Shown in pieces: positions 12,468-34,352 of a DNA stretch of 63,008 bases. The notes beneath the pieces were generated by a model, which saw only the letters and a list, made by a program, of their open reading frames with translations, had not been told where the DNA came from and made no database searches. Within the stretch, counting starts at the first letter, position 1. Every line of letters begins with the position of its first letter. The position numbers and the translations under genes are program-made. The DNA is taken from assembly GCA_009886035.1 (NCBI GenBank), contig VFJN01000090.1, forward strand, positions 1 to 63,008. The letters run 5' to 3'. The DNA is from Actinomycetota bacterium (GTDB lineage: Bacteria > Actinomycetota > Acidimicrobiia > Acidimicrobiales > VFJN01).

Positions 12468-13592
12468 ATGCACGATCCCGCCCCGCTCCGGCGGCTGGTG
12501 CACGTGCCAGCCCTCGACATTCTGCGGGCCTTCGCGGTGAGCCTCGTGGTGATGTCCCACATCTGGGTGGTGGCCCCGTACTTCTATTATCGCGAGATTT
12601 TTTCGCAGGCCGGCTTTTTGGGAGTCGACCTCTTCTTCGTGTTGAGCGGCTTCCTCATCACCGCTCTACTCGTGCAGGAGCACCACGACCGGGGCCGGAT
12701 CCGCTTCGGACGCTTCTATCTGCGTCGAGCCGTTCGGCTGCTCCCGGCGCTGATCGCCATGCTCTCGGGCTATTTGCTTTACGCCTGGCTCGCCGGTTGG
12801 CCACCGTTGGGAAACCGGAGTTGGGTGGTGGGCAGTGCCGGTGCCACCGTCGTGTTCGCCATGAACTGGCGGACGTTGTGGAACCCACTGGCGGCCGGCG
12901 ATCTCGTGGCGATGTGGTCGCTGGCCATTGAGGCGCAGTTCTATCTGGTGTGGCCGGTAATCCTGTCGGTGATCTTCGGGATCCGCCGCAACGTCCGCCT
13001 CGTGATCCCGGCCCTGGCGGGTCTGATCATCGCCGTCACCGCATGGAGGGTGCTGGTGTACCACTGGTGGGGCTGGGAAGCGGCCTACCTGCGCACCGAC
13101 ACCCGGGTGGATGGGCTCCTCATCGGCGCTCTTACCGCCACCCTGTTCGTGCGGGGACTCACACCAGCCCGCCTCCCCCGCTGGACACCCTGGGTGGTGG
13201 GGGCAACCTGGTTCGGTCTGATGCTCACCGTGAAAGCCGATGGCTCCTTCGCTTACCAGGGCGGCATCACCCTCTGGATCGTCGCTTCTGCCATCATGAT
13301 CCTCTACGTCGTGAGCCATCCCCGACCGCTGCGTTCGTGGCCCGCCCGGGGAGCCGAGATCATCGGCAAGGGCTCCTACGCCATCTATCTATGGCAGGTC
13401 CCGGTGATCTATGCCGTGAGTCGACAGGGAAATCCCAACGCCTCGGTCCGACGCATCATCCTGTGCCTCGTGGGAATCGCCATCACCGCCACGCTCTCCT
13501 GGTTCCTCGTGGAACAGCCGGCGCAGCGATTCGCACGCCGGTTCGGGGCCCGAGGCGCGTCGTCGGTGGATTCTCCGCCTAGTGCCTTCTGA
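12468..13592 (+). CDS. Acyltransferase family 3 membrane O-acyltransferase
   Basis: 374 aa and about 10 TM segments. N-terminal 'LDILRAFAVSLVVMSHI' and 'GVDLFFVLSGFLIT' are typical of acyltransferase-3 (OafA/YrhL-like) proteins. Confidence 0.85.
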   Translation: MHDPAPLRRLVHVPALDILRAFAVSLVVMSHIWVVAPYFYYREIFSQAGFLGVDLFFVLSGFLITALLVQEHHDRGRIRFGRFYLRRAVRLLPALIAMLSGYLLYAWLAGWPPLGNRSWVVGSAGATVVFAMNWRTLWNPLAAGDLVAMWSLAIEAQFYLVWPVILSVIFGIRRNVRLVIPALAGLIIAVTAWRVLVYHWWGWEAAYLRTDTRVDGLLIGALTATLFVRGLTPARLPRWTPWVVGATWFGLMLTVKADGSFAYQGGITLWIVASAIMILYVVSHPRPLRSWPARGAEIIGKGSYAIYLWQVPVIYAVSRQGNPNASVRRIILCLVGIAITATLSWFLVEQPAQRFARRFGARGASSVDSPPSAF

Positions 13593-14478
13593 ACGGCCGG
13601 GCGGCGCGGCTGAGCAATCCCAGGGTGCGGCTGATGGCCCCGTCGGAAAGACGCAGACGACGCTTCACCAGGTCGTAGCCAGCCAGCGCTTTCGTATCCA
13701 GGTAAATGGAGATGCCCCGCCAGCCATCGGTGGGCCGTGCCCGGTAGGTGGTGGAGCGGGTGAGCACATGGTCTTCTTCGGTGAAGTAGTAAAGAGCGAG
13801 CGACTGTCGAGCCCGGCCGGGGGGAACCGCGAGAGGTTCGGGATGCCCGTGGTAGGAGTGCTCATCGGTGGTGAAAATAAAGAGTCGGTTGCCGGTGGGC
13901 TCCACCCGGGTAACCGCTCGTTGCATGTCCTTGGACCACAGTTGCAACTGGCCGCCCCAGGCCGACTCCCAGGTGGGATTCAGATAGAGGAGGAGGTTCA
14001 CGCGACGACGCCACCCCGGCTTGCTGTGGTGGGCGGTGAAGTCGGCGTGGACGTTCAAGAAGCCACCCGCCACGGACCGATGAAGACCGCCACCGTCCAT
14101 GACATCGTCGGCCTGGAGGTTCACGAATCCGGTGAGCTCGCCCAGGAAGGCCACGAAGCGCTCCGAGGTGAGGGCGGCCGACACTGCCTCCAGCGTGGGT
14201 CCCCAGGATGACTTAGTGGTGTTGGCGTATTTCCGCTCATTGAGATGGAGGTAGTTCGTCCATGCCCCTTCCTCAATGCGCCCGAACTCCTCGTACACCC
14301 GAGTGATGACATCGCTGTGCAACACATCATCGAGCACGATGTGGGGGTACGGACTGGCGGCGGCGTAGCGCTCGGAGAGCTCCGGAAGGGCCTCCTCTAA
14401 CTTGTCGATGCAGAGGAGGTCTGAGGTGGTGGGGTGCATGGCTCCAACGTCGTCGCGGGGGGATTCCAACCCCGGCAA
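13579..14478 (-). CDS. 2OG-Fe(II) oxygenase-family protein
   Basis: 'GGGLHRSVAGGFLNVHADFTAHH...RRVNLLLYLNPTW...GGQLQLW...GNRLFIFTT...SYHG' fits the H-x-D...H jelly-roll pattern of prolyl-hydroxylase-like 2OG oxygenases seen in glycan clusters. An alternative ATG lies at 14439. Confidence 0.7.
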   Translation of the reverse strand: MPGLESPRDDVGAMHPTTSDLLCIDKLEEALPELSERYAAASPYPHIVLDDVLHSDVITRVYEEFGRIEEGAWTNYLHLNERKYANTTKSSWGPTLEAVSAALTSERFVAFLGELTGFVNLQADDVMDGGGLHRSVAGGFLNVHADFTAHHSKPGWRRRVNLLLYLNPTWESAWGGQLQLWSKDMQRAVTRVEPTGNRLFIFTTDEHSYHGHPEPLAVPPGRARQSLALYYFTEEDHVLTRSTTYRARPTDGWRGISIYLDTKALAGYDLVKRRLRLSDGAISRTLGLLSRAARPFRRH

Positions 14479-14552
14479 AGTTAGGTTACTGTACCGGCGG
14501 TGCCCCCCCTGGACCGACTCCGCCGGCTACGCCCCTGGCCTGCGCCGGTCAT

Positions 14553-16631
14553 TTGATTCACCCCTTCGCCACCACCCGTGCCCGGTGGGACCAGGCCGAG
14601 CCCGATCTGCGCCGATACACCCGCAGCGTCGCCGTGGCGGGTGGCCTGGGCGTCATCGCGTACCTCCTGGTGCTCTGGGACTTCGGCTGGCATCCCTTGC
14701 GCACGGCCATTGGGGGTGCCGACTTCTCCGGCTTCTACGACCTCCAAACCCGCCAGTTGTTCCACGGGCACCTCGATGTGCCCCGGAGCATCCTCGGCTT
14801 AGAAGCCTTCGCCGTGCGCGGCCGAGAATTCATGTACTTCCCCCCGGGACCCTCCTTGCTCCGGGCCCCGTTTTTTCTCTTTACCGATCGCTTGGACAGC
14901 AAGTTCACTGCCTTTTCGATGCTGGCGGCCTGGATTGTTGCGGCCGTTCTCATCGCCCTACTGATGTGGCGGGTTCGGCTTCTGCTGCGAGGACGCACCG
15001 GCCTGGGACGGGCGGAGGCGGTTGGGTTCGGCCTCCTGCTGTTCTCCCTCATGGCGGGGTCGGTCGTGCTCTACCTGGGGTCGCTCCCCTTCGTGTATCA
15101 CGAGGCCTACGCCTGGGCTATCGCCATGGCCCTCGGGGCCACCTTCGCCACCATCGGCCTGCTGGAGCGCCCATCCAACCGCGGGGCCCTCACGGCCGGA
15201 GCCTTCACCCTCGGAGCCATTCTCAGCCGCACCACCTCCGGCTGGGCGTGCGCCGGGGGTCTGATCCTGGCGGCGCTGTGGTTCGCGTCAGGTCGCAGCC
15301 ACCAGGTGCTTCCGCGCCGCTGGGTGGCCACTCTGTTCGCCGCCGCCTTTGTGCCGTTGGTTGTCGGCATCATTCTGAACTGGGCCAAGTTCCGCCACCC
15401 CTACTTCTTCCCCCTTCAGGATCAGATCTGGACCGGTATGAGTGCGCAGCGACGCGCCGCCCTCGCGGCCAACGGCGGGGACCTCGTCTCTCCGAACATC
15501 CTCCCGGCCACCGTGATGGGGTACTTCCGGCCGGACGGGATCCGCTTCAGCACGCTCTTTCCCTACATCACGCTGCCCGCCGAGGTCCCCCAAAACTATG
15601 GCGGGTCGTTCCTGGACCAGATGTACCGCACCGGCAGTGTGGTGGCGTTCATGCCGGTGCTGGTGCTCCTGAGCATCTGGGGCCTCATCACCACCTTTCG
15701 ACGCGGCGTGAAACGAGAGATCCGGAACCTCCGCATCCCCCTGCTGGCGGTTCTGGCCATTCCGCTTCCCATCATGTTCTACGGCTACATCGCCATGCGC
15801 TACACGGCGGAGTTCATCCCGTTGTTCGCCCTCGCCGGCAGCATTGGCTTCGTTGACATCGCCCGTCGCGGCGGACCCCACCCGAAGCGTGCCCGCCTGG
15901 CGTTCGGGATCCTTGCGGTGCTGGTGGTCTTCGGCTTCGCCGCCAACCTCGCCGTGTCGGTCACATCGGCGCGATTGGCCAACCCTGGCACCCCCCTCAC
16001 GCAGTACGTCCGGGTGCAGACCATCCTCAGCGACCGCACCCCCGGACGCCCCTTAGACCGCCTCATTCGCCAATCCCCTACCCTCCCTCGCTCCGGTCCC
16101 GCCGACCGCATCCAGATCGTGGGCGACTGCCGCGCCGCCTACATCGGGAGCGGCGACCCCCTCGCCCCGTGGATTCCCTTCGAAATCCAACCCCTCGAGT
16201 GGGACCTCGATCTGAGCACGACCCCAACGACCCCAACGACCCTCGACCTCGCCCAAGCCGACGGCGTAGCGGGTGACGGCCTCCAGCTCGAATTCGATGG
16301 CGCCGGGCGCTACCGGGGCACCTTCACCTCCACCACCGGGGTCGCGGTGGGCCGCTGGCGGTCCGTCCCCCCCGGTGGGGTGCATCTGCGCCTCTTCGCG
16401 TACCTCACCGAACACCTCTACATCCTCATCGATGTGGAGCGGCCCGCCCGGGGCCTCGTCGACCTGCCCTTAGGCCAACTTGATCAGACGCCGTACCGTC
16501 AGCAGTTGACCTTCCATCCCACCGACGGCGACGATCCGGCGGCCGGTGGACTCACCCTCACCCCACGGAAATCGACCCCACCGCCGTTGTGTCCGGCGCT
16601 GCGGGAACGAATCGAACCGGGAGGCGGCTGA
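14553..16631 (+). CDS. Polytopic membrane protein, GT-C-like glycosyltransferase candidate (paralog A) with a roughly 230-aa C-terminal soluble domain
   Basis: 692 aa with more than 10 TM helices. The first-loop acidic motif is 'GADFSGFYDLQTRQLFHGHLDVP'. Clear paralogy to 28429-30618: 'VYHEAYAW'/'VYHEASLW', 'YFRPDGIRFSTLFPYITLP'/'YIRPDALRFTAAFPFIDFP', 'IVGDCRAAY'/'IIGDCEAMY'. Family not assigned. Confidence 0.65.
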   Translation: MIHPFATTRARWDQAEPDLRRYTRSVAVAGGLGVIAYLLVLWDFGWHPLRTAIGGADFSGFYDLQTRQLFHGHLDVPRSILGLEAFAVRGREFMYFPPGPSLLRAPFFLFTDRLDSKFTAFSMLAAWIVAAVLIALLMWRVRLLLRGRTGLGRAEAVGFGLLLFSLMAGSVVLYLGSLPFVYHEAYAWAIAMALGATFATIGLLERPSNRGALTAGAFTLGAILSRTTSGWACAGGLILAALWFASGRSHQVLPRRWVATLFAAAFVPLVVGIILNWAKFRHPYFFPLQDQIWTGMSAQRRAALAANGGDLVSPNILPATVMGYFRPDGIRFSTLFPYITLPAEVPQNYGGSFLDQMYRTGSVVAFMPVLVLLSIWGLITTFRRGVKREIRNLRIPLLAVLAIPLPIMFYGYIAMRYTAEFIPLFALAGSIGFVDIARRGGPHPKRARLAFGILAVLVVFGFAANLAVSVTSARLANPGTPLTQYVRVQTILSDRTPGRPLDRLIRQSPTLPRSGPADRIQIVGDCRAAYIGSGDPLAPWIPFEIQPLEWDLDLSTTPTTPTTLDLAQADGVAGDGLQLEFDGAGRYRGTFTSTTGVAVGRWRSVPPGGVHLRLFAYLTEHLYILIDVERPARGLVDLPLGQLDQTPYRQQLTFHPTDGDDPAAGGLTLTPRKSTPPPLCPALRERIEPGGG

Positions 16632-16664
16632 GGCCCCCGACCACGATCGCCTACGCTCCCGGCT

Positions 16665-18299
16665 GTGGCGGTCGTAAAGGTGCCTGAGGAACTGAACCTG
16701 GCCGACGTACACGAAGCCATTGCCGCCACCGTTCCCGATCGAGACTGCATCGTCTGGCGCCAGCGCCACTGGAGTTGGGCCGAGGTCACCGACCGGACGC
16801 GACGGATGGCCGCCGTTCTCCAGGAGGCAGGACTGGGGATCAACTCCCCGGCGGCGGAACGCCAGGGGTGGGAATCCCCCCACGACCACGTTGCCATTTA
16901 TCTTCACAACGGCAACGAGTACCTCGAAGTACTCCTTGGTGCCGCCAAGGCCCGCGCCGCGGGAGTGAACATCAACTTCCGGTACGTCGCCGAAGAACTG
17001 CGCTACGTGCTCAACGACTGCCGGGCCACGGCCATCGTCTACCACGGCGCCTTCGCCGCCACGCTGGCCGAGGTGCTGCCCGATCTGCCCGACGTGCGGT
17101 TGCTCCTGCAGGTGGAGGACAGCTCCGGTGCCCCCCTTTTGCCGGGCGCCCGACGCTATGAAGAGGCGTTGGCCGCCGCCGTCCCCGTCGCCCCCACCGG
17201 CTTGTCCCCCGACGACCTCTACATCCTCTACACCGGTGGCACCACGGGTATGCCCAAGGGGGTGCTCTGGCGCCAGGCCGATTTTCTGGCCGCCTGCCTC
17301 GGGGTGGCGAGTACCAAGGCCGATCTGGTCACCGCCGCCGCCACTGCCCGCCTTCGTGCTCTCCCCGCGCCCCCGTTCATGCACGGCGCCGCCCACTGGA
17401 ATGCGATCAGCGCCTGGATCTCCGGTGGCACGGTAGTGATTCAGTCCGACCCCCATCGGTTCGACCCGGTAGACATCCTCGACACCATCGAAGGCGAAGA
17501 GGTTTCCTCCTTACTCATCGTGGGCGACGCCTTTGCCCGGCCCCTGGTGGACGAACTCGAGATCCGCCCCCGACCCCTGCCGCAGTTCCGTTTTCTCCTC
17601 ACCGGTGGCGCCATCCTGTCGCCGGCGGTCAAGACCCAGTTCCTCACCATCCTTCCCCAGCTGCGGATCGTGGATGTGTTGGGCTCATCGGAAACGGGAC
17701 GGCAGGGCGTGGCGCGATCCGACCAACAACACCCGGCCACCGCCGCCATGTTCCAGCCGTCCCCCACCACCGCCGTCCTCTCCGCCGATCGCCAACGCGT
17801 ACTCCCCGCCGGCGATCCCGAAGTCGGATGGCTCACCCAGACCGGGCGGGTGCCCCTCGGTTACCTCGGGGATGGGCCAAAAACGATGGCCACTTTTCCG
17901 ATGATCGATGGAATTCGCCATGCCGTAGCCGGCGACCGAGCCCGAATCCACGCCGATGGGTCCGTTGAACTGTGCGGACGGGATTCGGTGACCATCAATA
18001 CCGGTGGCGAGAAGGTGTTCGCCGAAGAAGTGGAGCAGGTCCTCAAGCAGCACCCCGCGGTGTTCGACGTGTTGGTAGTGGGTCGACCGAGTGAACGCTG
18101 GGGCCAAGAGGTGACTGCGGTGGTGCAACTGCGCCCGGGCACCTCCCCCGCCGACGCGGAGTTAGCCACGGTGGTCCGGAGTTGCCTGGCTGCCTACAAA
18201 GTTCCCAAGGCCTTCGTGCGGGTGGAGCAGATCGAGCGCAGTCCCAGTGGGAAGCCCGACTACCGCTGGGCAGATTCCATAGCCCGCAGTAGCGTGTAA
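16665..18299 (+). CDS. AMP-dependent acyl-CoA synthetase/ligase (FadD-like)
   Basis: AMP-binding motif 'YTGGTTGMPKGV', later 'GDRARIHADGSVELCGRDS' and 'SGKPDYRW'. 544 aa. Confidence 0.9.
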   Translation: MAVVKVPEELNLADVHEAIAATVPDRDCIVWRQRHWSWAEVTDRTRRMAAVLQEAGLGINSPAAERQGWESPHDHVAIYLHNGNEYLEVLLGAAKARAAGVNINFRYVAEELRYVLNDCRATAIVYHGAFAATLAEVLPDLPDVRLLLQVEDSSGAPLLPGARRYEEALAAAVPVAPTGLSPDDLYILYTGGTTGMPKGVLWRQADFLAACLGVASTKADLVTAAATARLRALPAPPFMHGAAHWNAISAWISGGTVVIQSDPHRFDPVDILDTIEGEEVSSLLIVGDAFARPLVDELEIRPRPLPQFRFLLTGGAILSPAVKTQFLTILPQLRIVDVLGSSETGRQGVARSDQQHPATAAMFQPSPTTAVLSADRQRVLPAGDPEVGWLTQTGRVPLGYLGDGPKTMATFPMIDGIRHAVAGDRARIHADGSVELCGRDSVTINTGGEKVFAEEVEQVLKQHPAVFDVLVVGRPSERWGQEVTAVVQLRPGTSPADAELATVVRSCLAAYKVPKAFVRVEQIERSPSGKPDYRWADSIARSSV

Positions 18300-18305
18300 C
18301 TCCTC

Positions 18306-19202
18306 ATGTTCCGACGCACCATCCCGCTGGCTTCGCCGCTGGCGCTAGCGCAAACCCTGGCGGCGCTTCGCCTAGGACAGTCGGACCCCACCATGGTGCT
18401 GTCGCCAACGAGGGCACTGATGGCCACCCGCACCCCCAATGGTCCTGCGACCGTCGACGTCCAACACTACGACGACGTGCTCGAGGTTGAGGCCTGGGGC
18501 GAAGGAGCGGAATGGGCCCTGGCGCAGGCCCCGGCCGCCCTGGGGGTGCTCGACGACGCGGCGGGTTTTCATCCCTCCCACCCGGCCGTGCGCCAACTAC
18601 ACGAGGCGGCGAGTGGCCTTCGCCTACCCCGCACCGCCCTCGTGTTCGATGCCGTGCTCTCCGCCCTCCTTCGCCACCAGGCCACACCCTTCGAAGCCCG
18701 GCGCTCCTTCCAGCAACTCGTGGATCGCTGGGGCGAGCCCGCCCCCGGACCCGGTGGCCTGCGCTTGCGTCCCGCTGCTCATGAGCTGGCCGCCCTCGGC
18801 GAGTACGAGCTCCACGCGGCCGGGGTCGAGGCCCAACGCGCCGACGCCCTCAAGCGGGCCAGTGCCCATGCCAGCCGTATCGAGGCCGCCGCCGTCCTTC
18901 CCGGGCCGGAGATGCGCGCCGCCTTGGAGTTGATCCCTGGCATCACGGCCTGGACCGCCGCAGAGGCTGCTCGCGTGGCGGCGGGTGACAGCGATGCCAT
19001 CGACCTGGGCGACCCGGCCCAGCGGAAGCTCATCGGCCACACCCTCCGGGGCGGCCCGGAACCCTCGGAGGAGCAGGTGCATGAACTCCTTGAGGAGTTC
19101 ACGGGTCAGCGAGGACGAGTGTGCGTCCTCATCGAGTGGGCCGCTCTCTCATCTCCCCTGGGCCTCGGTGAACCCCGGACGTCCTTCCCCGCCCCGCACT
19201 GA
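18306..19202 (+). CDS. HhH-GPD superfamily DNA glycosylase (AlkA-like 3-methyladenine glycosylase II family)
   Basis: 298 aa. N-terminal 'LRLGQSDPTM' and helix-hairpin-helix 'LIPGITAWTAAEAARVAAGDSDAIDLGD' resemble actinobacterial AlkA-family proteins. Confidence 0.55.
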   Translation: MFRRTIPLASPLALAQTLAALRLGQSDPTMVLSPTRALMATRTPNGPATVDVQHYDDVLEVEAWGEGAEWALAQAPAALGVLDDAAGFHPSHPAVRQLHEAASGLRLPRTALVFDAVLSALLRHQATPFEARRSFQQLVDRWGEPAPGPGGLRLRPAAHELAALGEYELHAAGVEAQRADALKRASAHASRIEAAAVLPGPEMRAALELIPGITAWTAAEAARVAAGDSDAIDLGDPAQRKLIGHTLRGGPEPSEEQVHELLEEFTGQRGRVCVLIEWAALSSPLGLGEPRTSFPAPH

Positions 19203-19420
19203 CGCTCACTCCTTTTGCGCCACCGCGTTCGGCGTCACATGCATGACCGGCTCGAAGGCCACCGGTGCCACCACCCGGGCTTCACCGCGAACCGTGGCCC
19301 GAAGATCCCTTCGGCACGCCGGGCACGGTCCGTAGTACGGGCCATCGGAGGGTTGGGCACAACGCGGGCAGGTCATGGTCATACCCGCCAGGTTCCCACG
19401 AGGGGGTACCTTGCTACGCC

Positions 19421-24992: not shown

Positions 24993-26492
24993 ATGCCCGC
25001 ACCGACCGACTCGTCCGCCCCCCCCCACGACCCTGGCCGCGTGGTGATCATCGGCGCTGGTCCGGCTGGGCTCACCGCCGCGTATCAGTTGGGCAAGGCC
25101 GGACACCCCTGCACCATCCTGGAGGGCATGGGCGTCGTGGGAGGCATCAGCCAGACCGTGGTGCGCGACGGTTGGCGATTCGACATCGGCGGTCATCGCT
25201 TCTTCACCAAGGTGCCCGAAGTGGAAGCGCTGTGGCACGAAATCCTGCCCGATGAAGATTTCCTGCTGCGACCCCGGGCGAGCCGCATCTACTACCAGGG
25301 AAAGTTTTACGCCTACCCGATCAAACCCTTGAACGCCCTCCGCAACCTCGGCCTCATCGAGGCCACTCGCTGCGTGCTTTCCTACGGTTGGGTGCGGATC
25401 CACCCGCCCGCCGATCAGAGCACCCTGGAGGGATACATCGCCACCAACTACGGATGGCGCCTCTACGGGCATTTCTTTCGGACGTACAGCGAGAAGGTGT
25501 GGGGGGTACCGCCGTCGCAGATCTCCGCCGAGTGGGGCGCCCAGCGCATCAAGGGGATGTCGCTATTCAAGGCCGTATGGGAACCACTACGCGCCCGCCT
25601 CGCCGGCCGGCGCGCCGGCCGCCAGCAGGTCACCAGCCTCATCGAGGAATTTCAGTACCCCAAGTTTGGTCCCGGGATGATGTGGGAACGCTGCCAGGAT
25701 CTCGTGGTCGAGCAAGGATCGACGATCCGGTTCCACGCGCCGGTGACGCGCATCGCGCATCGAGATGGACTTGCCGTGTCGGTCTCCACCCCCGACGATC
25801 TCCACGAGGTCGACCATGTGATTTCCTCCATGCCCTTCAACGCGCTGCTGCGCGCCATGGACCCCCCGGTACCGGCACCGGTGCTGGCCGCCGCCAATGA
25901 TCTCGGCTTCCGAGATTTCCTCTCGGTGGCCCTGGTGGTCCCCGCCGACAAGGTGGCCTGGACCGACAACTGGATCTACATCCATGCCCCCGAGGTCAAG
26001 ACGATGCGCGTGCAGAACTTCGGTTCCTGGTCGCCCCACATGGTCAAAGACGGCCACAACGTCCTCGGCCTGGAGTACACCGTGGAGCAGGGCGACGAGT
26101 GGTGGAACGCCAGCGACGAGGAACTCATCGAAAAGGGCAAAACGGAGTTGGAAGCGCTCGGACTCATGCAGGCCAGTGATGTCGAGGCGGGCTACGTGGT
26201 GCGCATGCCCAAGGCGTACCCCCTCTACGACGCCACCTACAAGGCCAACGTCGAGACGCTGAGAGACTGGCTCCGCCAGAACGCCTCCAATGTGCATCCG
26301 GTGGGACGTAACGGCATGCACAAGTACAACAACCAGGACCACTCGATGTACACGGCGATGCTGACCGTGGAGAACCTGCTCGGTGCCTCCCACGACATCT
26401 GGGACGTCAACGTGGAGGAGGAGTACCACGAGGAGTCATCCGGCAAGGGCGGCACCGGGCGCGATGCTCCCATCCTCCCCAAGCGCGCTTAG
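24993..26492 (+). CDS. FAD/NAD(P)-binding oxidoreductase (amine-oxidase/UDP-galactopyranose-mutase-like fold)
   Basis: Rossmann dinucleotide motif 'VVIIGAGPAGLTAAYQL' and C-terminal 'HPVGRNGMHKYNNQDHSMYTAMLTVENL'. About 499 aa from the ATG at 24993. Confidence 0.8.
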   Translation: MPAPTDSSAPPHDPGRVVIIGAGPAGLTAAYQLGKAGHPCTILEGMGVVGGISQTVVRDGWRFDIGGHRFFTKVPEVEALWHEILPDEDFLLRPRASRIYYQGKFYAYPIKPLNALRNLGLIEATRCVLSYGWVRIHPPADQSTLEGYIATNYGWRLYGHFFRTYSEKVWGVPPSQISAEWGAQRIKGMSLFKAVWEPLRARLAGRRAGRQQVTSLIEEFQYPKFGPGMMWERCQDLVVEQGSTIRFHAPVTRIAHRDGLAVSVSTPDDLHEVDHVISSMPFNALLRAMDPPVPAPVLAAANDLGFRDFLSVALVVPADKVAWTDNWIYIHAPEVKTMRVQNFGSWSPHMVKDGHNVLGLEYTVEQGDEWWNASDEELIEKGKTELEALGLMQASDVEAGYVVRMPKAYPLYDATYKANVETLRDWLRQNASNVHPVGRNGMHKYNNQDHSMYTAMLTVENLLGASHDIWDVNVEEEYHEESSGKGGTGRDAPILPKRA

Positions 26493-27223
26493 CGACCCCG
26501 CCGGAACACTCGATCTCGCAGGGCCCACCAGGTAACCAGGAACATGGCTTCGGCCACGATCCGTGACGACATCTTGGAGGTGCCGCGCACCCGGTCGGAG
26601 AAGATGATCGGCACCTCTGTGATCAACCCCCCCACCCGACGGACGCGGTAGGCCATCTCCACCTGGAAGGCGTAGCCATCGGCGCTGGTGGTCTGGTACT
26701 CGATGGCCCGGAGCAATTCGGCCCGGTAGGCACGAAACCCTGCGGTGGCATCCCGCACGCCGAGACCTAACACCATGCCGGCATACCGGTTTCCCCACCG
26801 CGACAAAAGGCGCCGCCGCAGAGGCCAATGCGGGGTGCCGCCGCCACTTACGTAGCGAGAGCCCACCGCCAGCGACGCACCGTTGTCCACTGCGTCCAGC
26901 AGACGCGGTACATCGGCGGGGTTGTGGGATAGGTCGGCATCCATCTCCACCAACACGTCGTAGCCCCTCTCGATACCCCACTCGAAGCCGGCCCGATAGG
27001 CGCCGCCCAGCCCCGACTTGTGGGGGCGGCGCAACACGGAAATCTGACCCAACGCCACCCCCGCCGACTCGGCGAGGTCCGCCGTGCCGTCGGGACTACC
27101 GTCGTCCACCACGAGAACCGAAACCTCGGGGGCCGCCGCCCGCACCTGCTCGAGAACCACCCCGATGTTTTCCGCCTCTTGGTAGGTGGGAATCACAACC
27201 AACGGGCGCGTCGAGCGGGGCAC
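26489..27223 (-). CDS. ppm1: Polyprenol-phosphate mannose synthase-like GT2 (Ppm1/DPM1 family)
   Basis: 244 aa with 'VVIPTYQEAENI', 'VVDDGSPDGT', 'GLGGAYRAGF', 'EMDADLSHNP'. These are the canonical soluble DPM1-type GT2 motifs. Confidence 0.82.
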   Translation of the reverse strand: MPRSTRPLVVIPTYQEAENIGVVLEQVRAAAPEVSVLVVDDGSPDGTADLAESAGVALGQISVLRRPHKSGLGGAYRAGFEWGIERGYDVLVEMDADLSHNPADVPRLLDAVDNGASLAVGSRYVSGGGTPHWPLRRRLLSRWGNRYAGMVLGLGVRDATAGFRAYRAELLRAIEYQTTSADGYAFQVEMAYRVRRVGGLITEVPIIFSDRVRGTSKMSSRIVAEAMFLVTWWALRDRVFRRGR

Positions 27224-27283
27224 CGCTGAACCTTAGCGGTGCCCATTCCCCCGCTGGAACCACCACTAAGGTCGGGAGTTCTG

Positions 27284-28441
27284 ATGTCCGAAACCACCCC
27301 TGATCGCCAGAAACTGGGCGACGTAGCCGCCGCCGCCGGCCTCCGCCGGATGCACGTACTCGCCTGGCGTGACCTCGACGACATCGAAGCCGGCGGATCG
27401 GAGGTACACGCCGCCGAGATTGCCTCGCGCTGGGCGGCCGCCGGCATCGACGTGGTGATGCGCACCTCTCATGCCCAGGGCCATCCCAGTCGGATCCAAC
27501 GCGACGGCTACCGGGTGATCCGTCGCCGGGGGCGCCACGTCGTATTCCTCGATGCGCCCCTGCAGGAACTCTGCCGAGTGGGTGGCCGCCGCGACGGGCT
27601 GTTGGAAGTTTGGAACGGGCTCCCCTTTTTCACCCCCCTGTGGGCCCGAGGGCCGCGCACCACCTTCATCCACCATGTCCACGGCGACATGTGGCGACAG
27701 GTCATGTCGCCCCGCCTCGCCCGCCTCGGTGAAGTGCTCGAACTGCGCGTGGCCCCCCGCGTCTATCAGCGTTCCCGCATCCTCACGCCATCGCCGTCGT
27801 CGCGGGAGCAGATCATTCGCCGCTTGGGGCTCTCCCCCGATCGGATCACGGCGGTGCCCAACGGCATCGACCCTCGCTTCTGCCCCGGGGGCACGCGCAG
27901 TACCGATCCGAAGGTACTGGTGGTAGGCCGACTCGTCCCCCACAAGCGCCTCGAGTGGATCATCGCGGCGGTGGTGGGCATCCGCCCTCGCCTCCCTGAC
28001 GTGCAGTTGGTCATTGTCGGAGAAGGGTACGAGCGCGGTGCCCTCACTCGTCTTGTGCACGACCAGCAAGCTGATGCCTTCGTGCACTTCGAGGGCCGCG
28101 TCTCCCCCGAGGCGCTGGTCGACCACTACCGATCAGCATGGCTCGTCGCCAGCGCCTCCTCCCACGAGGGCTGGGGCATGACCCTCACCGAGGCCGCCGC
28201 CTGCGGCACCCCGGCGGTGGCAACCCGAATCGATGGCCACGTCGATGTGGTGCAGGACCAACACTCGGGACTGCTCGCCGACAACCAGCACGAACTCACC
28301 GCCGCCATCGAGCACGTCCTCACTCATGGGGATCTCCGCCGCGCGCTGGGAGCCGCCGCCCAGACGCAGGCCGACGGGCTCACCTGGGATCGAACTGCCC
28401 TTGAGGTCTTACAGAGCGTGGCGGACCAATGCCTCCGGTAA
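27284..28441 (+). CDS. Glycosyltransferase family 4 (GT-B fold)
   Basis: C-terminal 'SSHEGWGMTLTEAAACGTPAVATRIDGHVDVV' (E-x7-E region) and 'VGRLVPHKR'. Alternative starts at 27239 and 27350. The stop overlaps the next gene by 13 nt. Confidence 0.85.
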   Translation: MSETTPDRQKLGDVAAAAGLRRMHVLAWRDLDDIEAGGSEVHAAEIASRWAAAGIDVVMRTSHAQGHPSRIQRDGYRVIRRRGRHVVFLDAPLQELCRVGGRRDGLLEVWNGLPFFTPLWARGPRTTFIHHVHGDMWRQVMSPRLARLGEVLELRVAPRVYQRSRILTPSPSSREQIIRRLGLSPDRITAVPNGIDPRFCPGGTRSTDPKVLVVGRLVPHKRLEWIIAAVVGIRPRLPDVQLVIVGEGYERGALTRLVHDQQADAFVHFEGRVSPEALVDHYRSAWLVASASSHEGWGMTLTEAAACGTPAVATRIDGHVDVVQDQHSGLLADNQHELTAAIEHVLTHGDLRRALGAAAQTQADGLTWDRTALEVLQSVADQCLR

Positions 28442-30618
28442 CGCCACGTCGCCGATGGCAACCGGCCTGGACCACTGGCCCCCAAGGTCGTTTCCTCGTG
28501 GCCAGCGGCGCGGGAGCCGCCGTGGCCCTCGCCCTGTTCACGTTCGTGATCACCCGCGGGCGCCCCGATCTCCTCCAGTGGCAGCGGAGTGGGGATTTCT
28601 ACGACGCCCAAGCCCACGCCTGGCTAGCGGGCCGCTGGAGCATCCCCGATGGGATCTTGAGTATCGAGAAGTTCCTGCACGACGGGCGCGCCTACATGTA
28701 CCAGGGACCGTGGCCGGCGGTGCTGCGGCTCCCCCTCGCGGCGCTGACCACTCGCTTCGACTCCCGTCTCACCCAACTCTCCATGATGCTCGCCACCCTC
28801 GTGGCGATGGCGGGAACCACCCGTCTCCACTGGCGGATCCGGTCCCTGGTGCGCCCGGCCACGCCGCTACGGCGGAGCGATCTGGCCGCCGCCGCCCTCA
28901 TCACCTTTGCCGTGGGCGGTGGCTCCACGTTCCTCTTCGAAGCCAGCCGGGCGTGGGTGTATCACGAGGCCTCGTTATGGGGCGCCGCCTGGACCATCGT
29001 GGGGATCGACGCCGTCGTGGGGTGCGTACAGCAGCCGAGTCGGCGTCGCTTCGCCTGGGCGGGATTAGTCATCACCCTGGCGATGTATTCTCGGAGTTCG
29101 GTGGCGCTGGGAGGCGTGGCCGCCATGGCCATCCTGGCCGGCGGGAACCTCATCCTGCGGATGCCTTGGCGGCGCGGTCGTACCTCCCCGTGGTTCGCCT
29201 GGGCCGGCAGCGCCAGTCGCCCCGACGGCCGTGTTCCGGTGCTGGCCCCCGCTCTAGCCGCCGGCATTCCCGTGGCTCTTTACGCCGCGGTGAACTACAT
29301 CAAGTTCGCCACCCTCTTCTCCATCCCGTTCTATAGCCAGGGCTTCACCATCGAAGACGCCCAGCGGCGCCAATTCCTCGATGCCAACAACGGCACCCTG
29401 TTTGGCCTCAAATGGGTCCCCACCACCGTGGTGCAGTACATCCGACCCGATGCCCTCCGTTTCACCGCTGCCTTCCCCTTCATCGATTTTCCCCCGCCTG
29501 CCCGTCCCTTCAGTGGCGTGCAGTTCGACCTAGTCGACTACGCCAGCAGCCTGCCGTCGTCCATGCCGGTTCTGGCGGTGCTGGCGGCGCTCGGGGTCTG
29601 GGCCCTGCTGCGGGCCCCGCGCCAGCGCTCGGGCACCGGCGTGGCGGCGCTGCGCGGGCCCGCCCTCGGTGCCCTGGCCGGGGGGATCACCATCCTCCCC
29701 TTTGCCTACGTCGCCAACCGCTACCTCACCGACCTCATCCCCGCCCTGGTGATCCTCAGCCTCATCGGGGTTCACCACCTGCTGGCCCGCAGCACCGCAG
29801 TGGCTGATCATCGGCCCCGCTGGGCCGTTCCCGTATGGGCCACGCTGGGTGTTCTCCTGCTGGCAGGGGTATGGGTCAACCTCTCCCTCGGCCTCGTCTT
29901 CGGTCGGCTCTACAGCTCTGATGTGAAAGACGACGTCGCCATAGGCTTCCTCGACACGCGCTACGACGTGGGCCAGTCGCTCGGGCGCGAGCCGTTCATC
30001 CCGCTTCAAGCCGGTGAGGGCCTCCCCAACGACGCCCGGCGCGGTCAAATCGCCATCATTGGCGATTGCGAGGCCATGTACCTGGCCGACGGCATGCCCC
30101 TCAACGCGTCGAAGCATCATGCCTGGAACCCGTTGATGCGTTCTGAAGCCGGCGGCCGCTATTTGCGCACCATCACGTTCCCGGCCGAAGCGCCCGGCAC
30201 CCGACTGCCGCTGTTCACCCTCACCAGTTCGGCGGGCGACGGGCAGCTCTATGCCGAATGGATGGGCGGCGCCGGGGTGCGGTTCACCTATCAGGGCCCC
30301 GGGAGCGGCTATCGCAGCCCCACGTTGTTCCTCCCCCCCGATCGTACGTACACCCTCGATCTCGTCGTCGATCCTCGGCTCGAGTTTGTCCAGATCTGGC
30401 TCGACGACGTGCTGGCCTTTCAGAGTTTCTATACAACCCCCGCCGACGCGCTGATCACCGTCGGCGCCGATATCCTCGGCGACCCGTTGCTCGCTGATAC
30501 CTACACGGGCCGGTTCGACCCTCTGCCGGAACGAAATGTGCGCCGCTGCGAGGAACTGCGGGACGAAGGGCTCGCCCAGCAAGCTCAGTCCACCGATGAC
30601 AACTCGTACACGAACTGA
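28429..30618 (+). CDS. Polytopic membrane protein, GT-C-like glycosyltransferase candidate (paralog B)
   Basis: 729 aa. First-loop 'SGDFYDAQAHAWLAGRWSIPD'. Collinear similarity to 14553-16631 through the TM region and the C-terminal domain. Confidence 0.65.
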   Translation: MPPVTPRRRWQPAWTTGPQGRFLVASGAGAAVALALFTFVITRGRPDLLQWQRSGDFYDAQAHAWLAGRWSIPDGILSIEKFLHDGRAYMYQGPWPAVLRLPLAALTTRFDSRLTQLSMMLATLVAMAGTTRLHWRIRSLVRPATPLRRSDLAAAALITFAVGGGSTFLFEASRAWVYHEASLWGAAWTIVGIDAVVGCVQQPSRRRFAWAGLVITLAMYSRSSVALGGVAAMAILAGGNLILRMPWRRGRTSPWFAWAGSASRPDGRVPVLAPALAAGIPVALYAAVNYIKFATLFSIPFYSQGFTIEDAQRRQFLDANNGTLFGLKWVPTTVVQYIRPDALRFTAAFPFIDFPPPARPFSGVQFDLVDYASSLPSSMPVLAVLAALGVWALLRAPRQRSGTGVAALRGPALGALAGGITILPFAYVANRYLTDLIPALVILSLIGVHHLLARSTAVADHRPRWAVPVWATLGVLLLAGVWVNLSLGLVFGRLYSSDVKDDVAIGFLDTRYDVGQSLGREPFIPLQAGEGLPNDARRGQIAIIGDCEAMYLADGMPLNASKHHAWNPLMRSEAGGRYLRTITFPAEAPGTRLPLFTLTSSAGDGQLYAEWMGGAGVRFTYQGPGSGYRSPTLFLPPDRTYTLDLVVDPRLEFVQIWLDDVLAFQSFYTTPADALITVGADILGDPLLADTYTGRFDPLPERNVRRCEELRDEGLAQQAQSTDDNSYTN

Positions 30619-32021
30619 TAGCTGAACAGTTGGGGACGAATCGCCACCAGCGATCCGTCTAGTCGGCGCAGCCCATCGCGCATCCCGCCGCCGCCGCCCG
30701 CCCCGGATCCCCCGCGATCGGCTACCTCCAGCGGCAGACCGATCGCTTCCTCGCGACGAATCTCCCAGCCGTTCGAATGCACCAGATGGGCGAAACTTCG
30801 CTTGGTGAAGAACCGCAGGTGCCCACGGTCCAGAATGCCGCGGGCGTCGTAGTCGAAGCGACCAACCGCCACTCGAACGCGCGGATACCAATGGCCGAAG
30901 TTGGGGATGCTGGTAATCACACTCCCGCCCGATCGAAGCACCGACCGCGCCGATTCCAGCACATTCTCCGGCGATCGAACGTGCTCGAGGACATCCGCGC
31001 AGAGCACCACGTCGAAATTGTCTCCGACCCCCTCGGGGATCCCCGCCTCGAGATCGGCTTGGAAGAAAGCGGTGAGCCGACCCTGCACACCCTTGTGTTC
31101 CTCGAGGTCCACCCCGATCACTTCATGACCCATCTCCATGAGGCGAGCCCCCAACTCCCCGTCGGAACAGCCAAGATCTAAAATGCGCGAGGGCGGTCGC
31201 AGGCTCATCCACCGCTGGATCCGACCGTGGGACGAAGCATCACCGGCTTTGATGTCGTAGGCGCTGGTCGAGAACGCTTTCGACCCGGTGCCGAAGCCCA
31301 TCTTGTGGGCGCGATAGCGCAACACATCCTTGACGACGTCTTTGGCGTACCCCAAACCATCGACGTAACAGATCTCGTCGCCGTAGTAGGTGGGGATGGG
31401 GATCTCTTGGATCCGGTACCCGGCCTCATGGAACTGAATGATGATCTCCGTGTCGAAGTTGAACCCGTCGGCGTTGACGGCGAGCGGGAGCGCCGCCAGT
31501 GCCTTCACGTCGTAGGCCCGGTAACCGGAGTGCCACTCCGAGAGTTCGGTACCGACTACCGCATTTTGGAAGGTGGTGAGAATCCGGTTGCCCACGTATT
31601 TGTAGGCGGGCATCCCGCCGAGACGGGCTTCGCCATGGTTCATGATCCGCGACCCGAATACCGCTTCCGCTCGGCCCTCCACAATCGGCTTGATCATGGA
31701 GGGCAGTAACTCGGGGGCATACTGGCCGTCGCCGTGGAGCAACACCACCACGTCCCACCCATGGTCGATGGCGTACTGGTAGCCCCACTTCTGGTTGCCG
31801 CCGTAACCGAGGTTGTGTTCGTGACGGACGATGCGCAGCGGTAGTTCCGGAGAAATCTGCTGGTAGCCCAGCGCCACGAGGTGGGTGGAATCCTGGCTGT
31901 AGTCGTCGCCGATGAGGATCTCATGAATCTCCCCCCGGAAATCCAAGGGGATGCGGTCGAGGGTCTGCGCGAGAGTGTTGGCGGCGTTGTAGGCAACCAC
32001 GAGAATTCCAACCTTCTTCAT
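30585..32021 (-). CDS. Fusion protein: N-terminal GT2 glycosyltransferase plus C-terminal class I SAM-dependent methyltransferase
   Basis: N-terminus 'VGILVVAYNAANTL...IGDDYSQDST...LLHGDGQY' (GT2). C-terminus 'ILDLGCSDGELGARLMEMGHEVIGVDL...FDVVLCADVLEHV' (methyltransferase motifs I-III). 478 aa. Confidence 0.8.
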   Translation of the reverse strand: MKKVGILVVAYNAANTLAQTLDRIPLDFRGEIHEILIGDDYSQDSTHLVALGYQQISPELPLRIVRHEHNLGYGGNQKWGYQYAIDHGWDVVVLLHGDGQYAPELLPSMIKPIVEGRAEAVFGSRIMNHGEARLGGMPAYKYVGNRILTTFQNAVVGTELSEWHSGYRAYDVKALAALPLAVNADGFNFDTEIIIQFHEAGYRIQEIPIPTYYGDEICYVDGLGYAKDVVKDVLRYRAHKMGFGTGSKAFSTSAYDIKAGDASSHGRIQRWMSLRPPSRILDLGCSDGELGARLMEMGHEVIGVDLEEHKGVQGRLTAFFQADLEAGIPEGVGDNFDVVLCADVLEHVRSPENVLESARSVLRSGGSVITSIPNFGHWYPRVRVAVGRFDYDARGILDRGHLRFFTKRSFAHLVHSNGWEIRREEAIGLPLEVADRGGSGAGGGGGMRDGLRRLDGSLVAIRPQLFSYQFVYELSSVD

Positions 32022-32118
32022 CGTCCGATCCTACTGGCCGTTGGGCGACCCAGGAAGATCTTGGACCCACCGGAGCATGACTCACCCCGGCACCCGTGAG
32101 GAGTCATGCTCTATTTCC

Positions 32119-33651
32119 ATGAGTCGCCGCCCCCTCACCATCACCCACAAGATCGTTATGGTGTTGGTGGGCCTCGTGGCGGTGGTGGCGGGCGGGGTGG
32201 TCGCCTTCGCCACGGCTCCGAACGGGCCCGCCCTCAGCGTGGACTCCGCCTCCTACGAACTCGCCGCCACCGCCTACCGAGACGAACCGTGGCGAGTTCC
32301 CCTCGTCCTCAACGGCGTGTTCCCGCCGGGCTACTCCGCCGCTATCGCCGGGGCTCGCTTCGGGAGCGCCACCGCCCGCGAGGCCGCCCGGGTGGTGAAC
32401 ATTGCGTGTCTCATGGCCATCATCGTCATGGTGGCCGCCGCGGTGGCCTCGGCCCGGCCCCGCCGCGGCGCCGATGCCGTCGCGGCGCCCGTCGCGGCGG
32501 CATTGCTTCTGGCTACCTCCGCGGCCATGTTGCGCTGGACGGGCTACGTCATGGCCGAGGTCATCTCCATCACCGCCGTGGTGGCGGCGGTGACTACTGC
32601 GGCGATCGCCCTGACGCGACCGCGATGGTTGGTGGTGGTCGGGGCCGCGGCCGGGGCGGCGGGGCTCGCCCGCCATGGTGCACTCATCACCGTCCCGGCT
32701 TTGGCGCTAGTGGTTCCCGCTCTGGTGCAGGGGCGGCGAGCGCAGGCGCGGGCCGGGGCCACCATTGCGCTGGTGGGCGCCGCCACCTGGTATTTCGGCA
32801 CTCGCCTCCTGCTCGATGGCCCGCCGCAATCCAGTCGGGCGATCGTGTGGCATCCACCGGGGGTCGGCGACCTTCGTGCCCTCGTCGACACCCTCGGGGC
32901 CTATTGGCTGCCGAGCGCCCTGGGCTCCACCCTCACCCGGGCGGTGGTCCTGGCCGCCGGGGGGCTGGCAGTGGTGGTCATCGCCCGGGCGGCGGTGAGG
33001 GGCGGTCCGGGGCGCGCCGACCACCGGCCGCCGGTGGTCATCTTGGCGGGCGGAATGGCCCTCGCCCAGATCCTCGTACTGGCGGTCAGCAAGGCGTGGC
33101 TCGATAAGGCCATCGTGGCCGACGAACGCCTCGTCCTGCCCGTGGTACCCCTGGTGATCCTCATGCTCGGCGCGGCCTGGCCGGCCGACACCACCCACCA
33201 ACCCCGACGTCGCGCCATCGGGGCCACGCTGGTGGTCGTGGTGCTCTGCGCCCAACTCGCCCGCACCAGCGACTGGATCCACCAATCCCGAGGCGATGGC
33301 ATCGAGTACGGCCAGCGTCGTTTCGCCACCTCGCCCACGCTCGCCGCCGTGCGCTCCCTCCCCGGAACCGCCCCACTGTGGACCAACGATGTAACGCTGC
33401 TGTCGCTGCGGGCCGACCGGCAAGCATTCCCCGTGCCCGCCCGTACCAACGGGTACAGCGGCCGTCCCGATCCCACTTTCGATGCCAATCTGACGGCTCT
33501 GCGCGATGGCGTGGCCGCGGGAGGGGCGGTGGTATACGTGGAGGGATTCACCTATCCGCTCTTGCTCCCCCGGGACGAACTGATGGCGTTGGTACCCGGT
33601 TTGGTGGCCGAACCCTTTGCTGATGGCGTCATCCTGCGGGCCGGGGCCTGA
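32119..33651 (+). CDS. Polytopic membrane protein, GT-C-like candidate
   Basis: About 510 aa from the ATG at 32119. It has roughly 11 Ala-rich TM helices, a first-loop 'SVDSASYELAATAYRDEPW', and a roughly 110-aa C-terminal soluble tail. Family not assigned. Confidence 0.5.
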   Translation: MSRRPLTITHKIVMVLVGLVAVVAGGVVAFATAPNGPALSVDSASYELAATAYRDEPWRVPLVLNGVFPPGYSAAIAGARFGSATAREAARVVNIACLMAIIVMVAAAVASARPRRGADAVAAPVAAALLLATSAAMLRWTGYVMAEVISITAVVAAVTTAAIALTRPRWLVVVGAAAGAAGLARHGALITVPALALVVPALVQGRRAQARAGATIALVGAATWYFGTRLLLDGPPQSSRAIVWHPPGVGDLRALVDTLGAYWLPSALGSTLTRAVVLAAGGLAVVVIARAAVRGGPGRADHRPPVVILAGGMALAQILVLAVSKAWLDKAIVADERLVLPVVPLVILMLGAAWPADTTHQPRRRAIGATLVVVVLCAQLARTSDWIHQSRGDGIEYGQRRFATSPTLAAVRSLPGTAPLWTNDVTLLSLRADRQAFPVPARTNGYSGRPDPTFDANLTALRDGVAAGGAVVYVEGFTYPLLLPRDELMALVPGLVAEPFADGVILRAGA

Positions 33652-34345: not shown

Positions 34346-34352
34346 CGCCGCC

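Follow-up and report, generated by a model that had tools for sequence, protein, structure and literature searches.

Organisation of the gene cluster

In a 63,008-bp contig from an uncultured bacterium of the class Acidimicrobiia (Microthrixaceae-related; GC content 63-70%), hereafter the window, we analysed a gene cluster centred on membrane-embedded glycosyltransferases (GT) of the GT-C fold. The gene map from 12.4 to 35 kb was constructed from the listing of open reading frames (ORFs) together with codon-position GC and scans against Pfam and NCBIfam. All genes listed in a preliminary description of this DNA were found at the positions given there. The gene starts 24993 and 27284 and the gene 21327-24932 are identical to public gene calls, while the starts 19421 and 32119 agree with homolog lengths of 640 and 510 amino acids (aa), respectively. 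The nearest named relatives of the window proteins are those of ‘MAG: Acidimicrobiia bacterium’ (MSO86672-86678) and of metagenome-assembled genomes (MAGs) of Microthrixaceae.

The domain and fold assignments supported the view that the locus serves the extracytoplasmic assembly of a glycan and is based on GT-C enzymes, together with polyprenyl-phosphate-type GT2 enzymes, a GT4 enzyme, an O-acyltransferase and a methyltransferase. The preliminary description had regarded nearly every gene as envelope-glycan related; this applies to 12 of the 14 genes in the span, the exceptions being genes for an acyl-CoA synthetase and a HhH-GPD-like protein which it had skipped. The genes are listed here with their strand and the matches on which the assignments are based.

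12468-13592 (+): membrane O-acyltransferase of the acyltransferase-3 (AT3) type; Acyl_transf_3, PF01757, 3.5e-29
13579-14478 (-): 2-oxoglutarate (2OG)-Fe(II) oxygenase, prolyl-hydroxylase-type fold; 2OG-FeII_Oxy_3, PF13640, 1.3e-16
14553-16631 (+): GTCa1, GT-C-fold glycosyltransferase with C-terminal beta-sandwich; AlphaFold model and Foldseek
16665-18299 (+): acyl-CoA synthetase; AMP-binding, 1e-51; NF005863, 643 bits
18306-19202 (+): HhH-GPD/AlkA-like protein, weak assignment; NF007641, 7.3e-7, far under cutoff; HhH-GPD, 0.086
19421-21343 (+): ArnT/PMT_2-like polytopic protein, probable GT-C; invariant first loop, C-terminal DUF7846
21327-24932 (-): AftD-like GT-C, 1201 aa; N-terminal GT-C, large outer domain and C-terminal bundle of transmembrane (TM) segments; GT-C_AftD, PF11847, 2.1e-80
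24993-26492 (+): UDP-galactopyranose-mutase-like flavoenzyme, eukaryotic type; PDB 4dsg, 7.9e-20
26489-27223 (-): DPM1/Ppm1-like GT2, soluble, 244 aa; PF00535, 6.8e-30
27284-28441 (+): GT4 of GT-B fold, retaining-type, cytoplasmic; PF00534, 1.6e-32
28429-30618 (+): GTCa2, paralog of GTCa1; 31% identity over 505 aa, E = 4e-57
30585-32021 (-): fusion of GT2 (PF00535, 9.2e-19, residues 6-175) and SAM methyltransferase (Methyltransf_23/MetW, residues 268-422)
32119-33651 (+): GTCb, rare family with ArnT-like GT-C fold, in a variable slot; model and Foldseek
40051-41238 (+): LCP family glycopolymer ligase; PF03816, 4.7e-33; TIGR00350, 108 bits, above cutoff

A flavoenzyme resembling eukaryotic UDP-galactopyranose mutases

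The product of the gene at 24993-26492 had been described as a Rossmann FAD oxidoreductase. Its FAD/amine-oxidase fold was recovered, but the protein most resembles UDP-galactopyranose mutases, which accounted for all of the top 14 matches in a PDB search. The likeness to the best match 4dsg covers nearly the full length (residues 31-481 against 11-455), and the similarly high-ranking structures 3ute and 3uka (~3e-17) were matched better than the bacterial-type mutases (~1e-7). 4dsg, 3ute and 3uka are the mutases of Trypanosoma cruzi and Aspergillus fumigatus; the matched eukaryotic-type enzymes are roughly 500 aa long.

In the alignment the window protein retains, apart from the flavin-binding GxGxxG, the histidine loop with GGH (DIGGHRFF), KVW, the arginines of AQR and RVQNF..WS, KAYP and the C-terminal GRNGMHKYNNQDHS. 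The motifs GGH, AQR, RxQNF, KAYP and GRNGMHxYNNQDHS are invariant in 14 members of the mutase-like family from other loci. The aligned residues presumably correspond to H63, W167, R182, R327, Y419, R447, Y453 and N457 of the A. fumigatus mutase, to which catalytic or substrate-binding roles are ascribed; counting along the alignment reproduces these numbers with the +3 offset of the chain. These arginine, tyrosine and asparagine residues are kept. Overall similarity to the solved mutases is modest (74 bits), and the position of N163 is occupied by serine. The family also carries a conserved C-terminal extension (VNVEEEYHEE ... GTGRDAPxLPR) past the last residue aligned to the eukaryotic mutases. 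NCBIfam assigned the protein to NF005548 (‘hypothetical protein’, 708 bits), and public annotation of the mutase-like proteins reads ‘NAD(P)/FAD-dependent oxidoreductase’ or ‘protoporphyrinogen oxidase’ only. A literature search returned nothing relevant on bacterial mutases of the eukaryotic type and nothing on PRK07208.

The conserved residues suggest that the enzyme is probably a nucleoside diphosphate (NDP)-sugar pyranose-furanose mutase. The preliminary description had left glf homologs to be sought in the whole genome; because the product of 24993-26492 is mutase-like, a glf-type function would reside within the cluster itself. Such a gene suggests that a furanose sugar is involved and not solely mannose, which had been proposed as donor sugar.

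Membrane-embedded glycosyltransferases

The AftD-like protein matched the GT-C_AftD family with 270.9 bits (cutoff 26), and the solved mycobacterial AftD structures 6w98/6wbx matched its residues 9-560 with an E-value of 1.8e-28. At E<=1e-3, 4057 representative homologs were obtained. TM segments are located at residues 91-407 and 1067-1195 with ~650 soluble residues between them, which matches the published AftD layout of N-terminal TM segments, a long outer region that carries carbohydrate-binding modules, and a TM bundle at the C-terminus (10.1101/2019.12.22.885152). The protein is shorter than the family mean of 1381 aa. The proposed membership in the AftD family was thus confirmed, while the discoidin-type module claimed for the protein was not: the F5/8-type-C match (1.3e-4, 22.5 bits) falls under the Pfam cutoff. 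Among AftD-like relatives, little or no variation was seen at D31, K33, D39, E245, R357, D467 and E474, which are candidate counterparts of the essential residues K39, D41, E251, K361 and D474 of Mycobacterium abscessus AftD. In many Acidimicrobiia loci, two AftD-like genes adjoin on opposite strands, with products ~39-43% identical to the window protein (L012, L014-L016, L020, L024, L026, L027, L029, L030, L033, L035, L038); L012 also carries a PMT_2 GT-C and an ORF containing CBM_AftD.

The two polytopic proteins of ~700 aa had been called paralogous, and the identity of GTCa1 and GTCa2 given above bears this out. Neither of them matched a Pfam or NCBIfam glycosyltransferase family, and none of 41 homologs matched a Pfam GT-C family. 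As PDB searches with single sequences and with profiles gave no match for GTCa, the ArnT-like protein or GTCb, fold comparison was needed. The AlphaFold model of GTCa1, based on 41 sequences, reached a pLDDT of 90.1 and a pTM of 0.91. Its top 20 Foldseek matches in the PDB were all GT-C enzymes (AglB, PglB, STT3, Pmt4, AftA, ALG12/9, EmbC) with a best E-value of 4.8e-6 and a probability of 1.00 save for one (0.75), at TM-scores by target of <=0.51. The C-terminal 190 residues of the model form a beta-sandwich resembling lectin/LamG-type domains. The assignment of GTCa2 to GT-C is derived from its paralogy with the modelled GTCa1. In the first loop of GTCa proteins, which follows TM1 (residues 26-44), F61-Y62-D63 is near-invariant and Q65 and E84 are invariant.

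Four homologs of GTCa1 (P0051, P0067, P0068, P0106) are fusion proteins with AT3 at the N-terminus and GTCa at the C-terminus, an order which is the same as that of the window genes. As these natural fusions mirror the gene order, they are good sequence-based evidence that the predicted AT3 acyltransferase and GTCa1 act together; to our knowledge, no AT3-GT-C fusion has been described. AT3 adjoins GTCa1 in the loci L001, L004 and L013, and only in these closest relatives is the 2OG oxygenase gene kept between the two, whereas GTCa2 is present in L001, L004, L007 and L013. Just upstream of the cluster lie genes for two secreted-looking GDSL/SGNH-type proteins, 7540-9105 (+) and 9958-10824 (+), one of which matches Lipase_GDSL_2 while the other has an ‘LGDSYGAGEG’ block and a signal-like N-terminus. 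Since AT3 acyltransferases usually have an SGNH domain as their partner on the outside, the two proteins might serve the AT3 enzyme; the pair is absent from the equivalent position in L001.

The first-loop sequence ‘NRDEAVY’ of the ArnT-like protein comprises residues 40-46 and follows TM1 (residues 15-33). In 42 homologs, S38, N40, R41, D42, E43, V45 and Y46 are invariant (S-x-N-R-D-E-x-V-Y). A PMT_2 match was found in one of these 42 homologs (6.6e-6) and DUF7846 in 19, while Pfam gave no PMT_2 match for the window protein itself. Homologs are annotated by the Joint Genome Institute (JGI) as ‘ArnT-like glycosyltransferase’. A comparison of this family with the GTCb family by hhalign gave E = 1.4e-4 and a probability of 53%, which dropped to 15% under other settings. 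Based on the invariant loop, the JGI naming, the single PMT_2 match and the weak profile match to GTCb, the ArnT-like protein is a probable GT-C enzyme.

For GTCb, the model (pLDDT 83.4) superimposed best with ArnT (5ezm/5f15; TM-score 0.57-0.60, E = 2e-6), followed by ALG12/9, AglB, AftD and AftB. Seventeen homologs were found, in which D42 is invariant after TM1, and a distant homolog carries PF02366 (PMT).

All five polytopic proteins share an Arg-rich N-terminus followed by TM1 and a first loop in which an acidic residue is conserved. Five GT-C membrane proteins had been proposed; four of them (AftD-like protein, GTCa1, GTCa2 and GTCb) were shown to be such enzymes, and the ArnT-like one is probable. 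Profile-profile comparison among the GT-C families gave no significance, except for the weak similarity between the ArnT-like and GTCb families, and as judged from these profiles the families are separate and not recent duplicates, GTCa1 and GTCa2 excepted. A transporter identity of the polytopic proteins, examined for three families, was rejected: Foldseek returned transporters only at a probability of <=0.20 (GTCa1 and GTCb models), and the proteins matched GT-C enzymes instead.

Cytoplasmic glycosyltransferases and the methyltransferase

The best PDB match of the GT2 encoded at 26489-27223 was dolichol monophosphate mannose synthase (5mlz, 3.3e-33), followed by ArnC (1e-10 to 5e-9). Among NCBIfam models PpgS, AglJ and Dol-P-hexose transferase ranked first, all of them far below cutoffs, and a mate in its 90%-identity cluster is named ‘polyprenol monophosphomannose synthase’. 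The fusion protein with the methyltransferase has a GT2 domain that is likewise DPM1/AglJ-like (AglJ 4.8e-21, PpgS 5e-13, both under cutoffs). The locus thus holds two GT2 domains of the polyprenyl-phosphate-sugar-synthase type and no GlfT-type GT2. The GT4 matched MshA, EpsE and similar NCBIfam models below their cutoffs; a role in primer or anchor synthesis is likely.

Conservation and modularity of the locus

When 185,579 species genomes were scanned with an alignment of eight AftD-like sequences, 80 loci were obtained, all of them Acidimicrobiia by title or content; an AftD alignment of 29 sequences proved too divergent for this purpose. Neighbouring genes were identified by tblastn of the window proteins. 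The loci comprise 10-kb flanks, so that the LCP gene, located 15 kb from the AftD-like gene, falls outside all of them.

The whole gene order is kept in L001, L004 and L013 at 59-73% AftD identity (L004 73%, L013 69%) and partly in L007. L001, a 538-kb metagenome contig encoding proteins ~50-80% identical to those of the window, shows the order peptidyl-prolyl isomerase-AT3-2OG-GTCa1-(ECH)-synthetase-HhH-ArnT-like-AftD-like-mutase-GT2-(methyltransferase)-GT4-GTCa2, with an extra Methyltransf_24 gene between GT2 and GT4. In L013 (CAVRKU010000028.1), GT2-methyltransferase, GTCa2, GT2, synthetase and AftD-like proteins match in consecutive pieces as if frameshifted; assembly indel errors seem more likely here than pseudogenes.

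Seventeen loci with an AftD-like identity of >=45% and at least 8 kb on each side were considered ortholog-level. The ArnT-like gene was present in 15 of these 17 and adjoined the AftD-like gene in 15; for the mutase-like gene both numbers were 14, and GT2 was found in six. By comparison, AT3, 2OG, GTCa1, GTCa2 and the GT2-methyltransferase fusion each occurred in at most two of the 17. In a distant group of 21 loci with AftD-like identities below 45%, a GT4 gene was adjacent in 20, and the mutase-like gene was present in seven, usually in a co-directional mutase-GT4-AftD-like run with gaps of commonly 50-150 bp. In 12 of 30 loci, a DPM1-like GT2 gene is found no more than 1 kb from the mutase-like gene, either convergent with it or co-directional; since both layouts occur, the linkage appears to be under selection. 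In L017 and L035, the genes for GT2, the mutase-like enzyme and the ArnT-like protein form, in this order, a compact run next to the AftD-like gene, with gaps of 36-90 bp. Many loci encoded a second paralog of the AftD-like protein or a GT-C of the PMT_2 type.

The slot between the GT2-methyltransferase gene and the alpha/beta hydrolase gene, which holds GTCb in the window, is occupied by a PMT_2 GT-C in L004 (1359-2750) and L013 (2503-3942) and by an FkbM methyltransferase in L007 (1063-1980). In the L001 contig, a GTCb homolog is encoded 250 kb from the cluster, beside an arginine operon. Variability of this kind would be expected in a surface-glycan diversification locus.

These results show that the locus is modular, with a widely kept core of AftD-like, ArnT-like and mutase-like genes, often joined by the DPM1-like GT2 gene. 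AT3/2OG/GTCa1, GT4/GTCa2/GT2-methyltransferase and the variable slot are lineage-specific decorations. The preliminary description had postulated one dedicated pathway, which was not borne out: beyond the closest relatives only the core, with or without GT2, is kept, and the GTCb slot varies.

Eight loci (L020, L021, L023, L036, L046, L049, L056, L077) are from MAGs labelled Bifidobacteriaceae or Bifidobacterium breve, yet they hold AftD-like loci of the Acidimicrobiia type (40-54%) with the usual neighbours; the taxon labels look wrong.

Proposed pathway and alternative explanations

We propose that the cluster is a modular envelope-glycan locus in which a wall glycan containing furanose and bearing acyl and methyl groups is assembled by way of polyprenyl phosphate, and we assign this reading a probability of about 0.7. 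As suggested by its conserved residues, the cytoplasmic mutase-like enzyme would convert an NDP-hexopyranose, most simply UDP-galactopyranose, into its furanose form. The two DPM1-like GT2 domains would, judging from their family, load sugars onto polyprenyl phosphate, and the GT4 would build a lipid-linked primer. After a flipping step carried out by a further component, the GT-C enzymes, for which the fold but not the activity was demonstrated, would extend and branch the polymer on the outside. AT3 might O-acylate the polymer together with GTCa1, as the gene fusions suggest, and the fused methyltransferase would add O-methyl groups.

Several observations weigh against this proposal. No flippase (GtrA, MATE, SMR), Wzx/Wzy or ABC exporter was found among the window genes scanned, and these are packed too tightly for a hidden flippase gene. 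The cluster is interrupted by the acyl-CoA synthetase and HhH-GPD-like genes (16665-19202). The mutase-like protein does not match Pfam GLF; Pfam gives Amino_oxidase and NAD_binding_8 only. Its gene occurs without a detectable GT2 or GT4 gene nearby in L006, L008, L009 and L011, and six distant loci (L044, L047, L060, L065, L074, L077) contain the mutase-GT4-AftD-like run without GT2.

How the furanose would reach the polymer can be explained in two ways. In the leading but tentative scheme, the donor is a lipid-linked hexofuranose: the mutase would provide UDP-galactofuranose or a related NDP-hexofuranose, the GT2 would transfer the sugar to polyprenyl phosphate, and the AftD-like and ArnT-like proteins would polymerise it outside, so that this route replaces that of decaprenyl-phospho-arabinose. 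It is favoured by the compact units of GT2, mutase-like, ArnT-like and AftD-like genes and by the lack of any other type of Leloir transferase. These units (L017, L035) contain no further Leloir transferase that could consume an NDP-furanose, as would be needed if, in an arrangement like that of arabinogalactan, UDP-galactofuranose were used by cytoplasmic Leloir transferases for a lipid-linked primer of the galactofuranan type, with the GT2 acting as polyprenyl-P-mannose synthase and the GT-C enzymes including the AftD-like protein as mannosyltransferases as in lipomannan synthesis. Such a split, which we consider possible but doubtful, would follow the known logic of lipomannan synthesis, in which a PimA/PimB-type GT4 and Ppm1 operate together with GT-C enzymes. 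It agrees with the GT2 being closest to dolichol-P-mannose synthase and bearing the public name of a Ppm synthase; this enzyme may indeed simply make polyprenyl-P-mannose, which would count against the lipid-linked furanose. The GT4 gene that adjoins the AftD-like gene in 20 of the 21 distant loci, in some cases preceded directly by the mutase-like gene, and the loci with a mutase-like gene but no GT2 nearby also fit the split better. Furthermore, GT-C enzymes invert, and a lipid-linked beta-galactofuranose donor would lead to alpha-galactofuranose, which is rare. A polyprenyl-phospho-galactofuranose would be new, as our literature search returned no report of one. On the other hand, the cluster encodes no GlfT-type GT2 or other known type of galactofuranosyltransferase, since both GT2 domains are DPM1/AglJ-like and the GT4 is retaining, and the window provides no exporter for a polymer made in the cytoplasm.

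The strong match of the AftD-like protein to PF11847 and to the AftD structures raises the question whether true arabinan is made. In this case the enzyme would use decaprenyl-phospho-arabinofuranose from UbiA, DprE1 and DprE2 homologs encoded outside the 63-kb window, and the mutase would serve a separate galactan part. Genes of the decaprenyl-phospho-arabinose pathway could be located elsewhere in the genome, a point that would weaken our proposal. However, AftD homologs are also found in orders not known for arabinan. Pfam and NCBIfam scans confirmed that, as stated, the window encodes no UbiA, DprE1 or DprE2, none of the three was present among the genes examined in L001, L009 and L012, and the nearby short-chain dehydrogenase/reductase (SDR) at 35112-35891, tried as DprE2, was rejected as generic and FabG-like. 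Arabinan synthesis is therefore unlikely, even though AftD homologs are widespread in Actinobacteria (10.1101/2019.12.22.885152).

Least probable, and in our view very unlikely, is that some of the GT-C enzymes (the ArnT/PMT-like protein, GTCb, GTCa) modify secreted proteins, possibly on residues altered by the 2OG oxygenase. The folds of GTCa1 and GTCb resemble oligosaccharyltransferases and protein mannosyltransferases (PMTs), but among many other GT-C enzymes; a distant GTCb relative has a PMT domain, and a 2OG-FeII_Oxy_3 gene and a cyclophilin gene are found at the cluster edge. Of the latter two, the 2OG gene is restricted to the closest relatives and the cyclophilin gene seems to mark synteny and nothing more. 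Glycans as acceptors would suit both the beta-sandwich at the C-terminus of GTCa and the large outer domain of the AftD-like protein, and decoration by AT3 and a methyltransferase is typical of polysaccharides.

Comparison with known systems

With the arabinogalactan and lipoarabinomannan machinery of Corynebacteriales (AftD, Emb, AftA-C, Ppm1, PimA/B, Glf, Lcp1), the window shares an AftD-family GT-C whose outer domain is large, several additional GT-C enzymes, a DPM1/Ppm1-like GT2, a GT4, a mutase-type enzyme and an LCP ligase in the vicinity. In contrast, the window organism belongs to the class Acidimicrobiia, its AftD-like protein is ~200 aa shorter and its mutase is of the eukaryotic and not of the bacterial Glf type. 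UbiA, DprE1 and DprE2, GlfT1/2-type GT2 enzymes and a Wzm-Wzt exporter are missing from the window, and three of its GT-C families have no Pfam model. The published AftD survey covered orders of the class Actinobacteria (10.1101/2019.12.22.885152). In our own literature search, nothing describing AftD of Acidimicrobiia and nothing relevant on wall sugars of Acidimicrobiales was found.

Three-component systems of extracytoplasmic glycosylation (Gtr; Arn; the GT136 pentofuranose system, Kelly et al. 2024, PMC11127046) follow a common logic with the locus, namely a cytoplasmic enzyme producing the polyprenyl-phosphate sugar and a GT-C acting outside; an auxiliary enzyme setting the identity of the sugar and a carbohydrate-binding domain on the GT-C are shared as well. 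Unlike these systems, the window has no flippase gene (GtrA, MATE, SMR), and its several GT-C enzymes suggest that a polymer is built instead of a single side chain being added. Compared with the pentofuranose system, the donor would be derived from an NDP-sugar via GT2 and not from phosphoribosyl pyrophosphate, and the sugar would be a hexofuranose; hexofuranoses are not mentioned in that paper (PMC11127046). The AT3 protein has in common with O-acetyltransferases of the OafA/OafB type an AT3 membrane domain tied to a surface-glycan pathway, but it is not partnered by a fused SGNH domain; some relatives have a GT-C-fold protein fused C-terminally to AT3.

Acidimicrobiia are abundant in soil, freshwater and activated sludge, and we found no description of the envelope glycans of this class. 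Their AftD-type enzymes, relatives of a tuberculosis drug target, adjoin a putative furanose mutase and not an arabinose-donor pathway. The locus furthermore yields two GT-C-fold families without a Pfam or NCBIfam model, and the natural AT3-GT-C fusions tie O-acylation to a specific transferase. If the tentative lipid-linked furanose were real, it would represent a new class of glycosyl donor, the hexose counterpart of decaprenyl-phospho-arabinose, and would suggest a function for AftD homologs in actinobacteria without arabinan.

Neighbouring genes

The acyl-CoA synthetase gene has a conserved position in L001, L004, L006, L008, L009, L011 and L013, where the HhH-GPD-like gene is syntenic too. 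Both stay between the GTCa1 and ArnT-like positions at AftD identities of 55-73%, even where GTCa1, 2OG and AT3 are lacking (L006, L008, L009, L011). The synthetase may be a syntenic passenger or have a role of its own; the HhH-GPD/AlkA-like protein is probably unrelated to the glycan.

Downstream of GTCb, the following genes were identified.

33671-35012 (+): alpha/beta hydrolase, then NT5C-type HAD nucleotidase; Pfam
35112-35891 (-): generic FabG-like SDR; profile match

The hydrolase and nucleotidase genes also flank the AftD-like loci L004, L007 and L013, as well as nine and ten, respectively, of the 21 distant loci; distant loci with this flank include L044, L047, L060, L065, L066 and L078. 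Routes via polyprenyl-phosphoribose include a phosphatase step, of which a HAD phosphatase next to a putative furanosyl-lipid pathway is reminiscent; a phosphoribosyltransferase is not present. The long ORF 35022-36347 (+) has no family match and overlaps the well-supported SDR gene on the opposite strand; it is probably a spurious high-GC ORF. The LCP gene, the identity of which was confirmed, is separated from the cluster by five unrelated genes (alpha/beta hydrolase, NT5C, SDR, M18 peptidase, UvrD).

A GH3 glycoside hydrolase with an Fn3-like domain is encoded 14 kb downstream of the cluster at 48013-50241 (+). Mycobacterial aftD adjoins a GH3 gene (LpqI) as well; the parallel is possibly a coincidence. 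Upstream of the cluster, a copper amine oxidase gene (415-2334) and a TerD/TelA tellurite-resistance-type pair (3633-4199, 4736-5962) are unrelated to the glycan locus.

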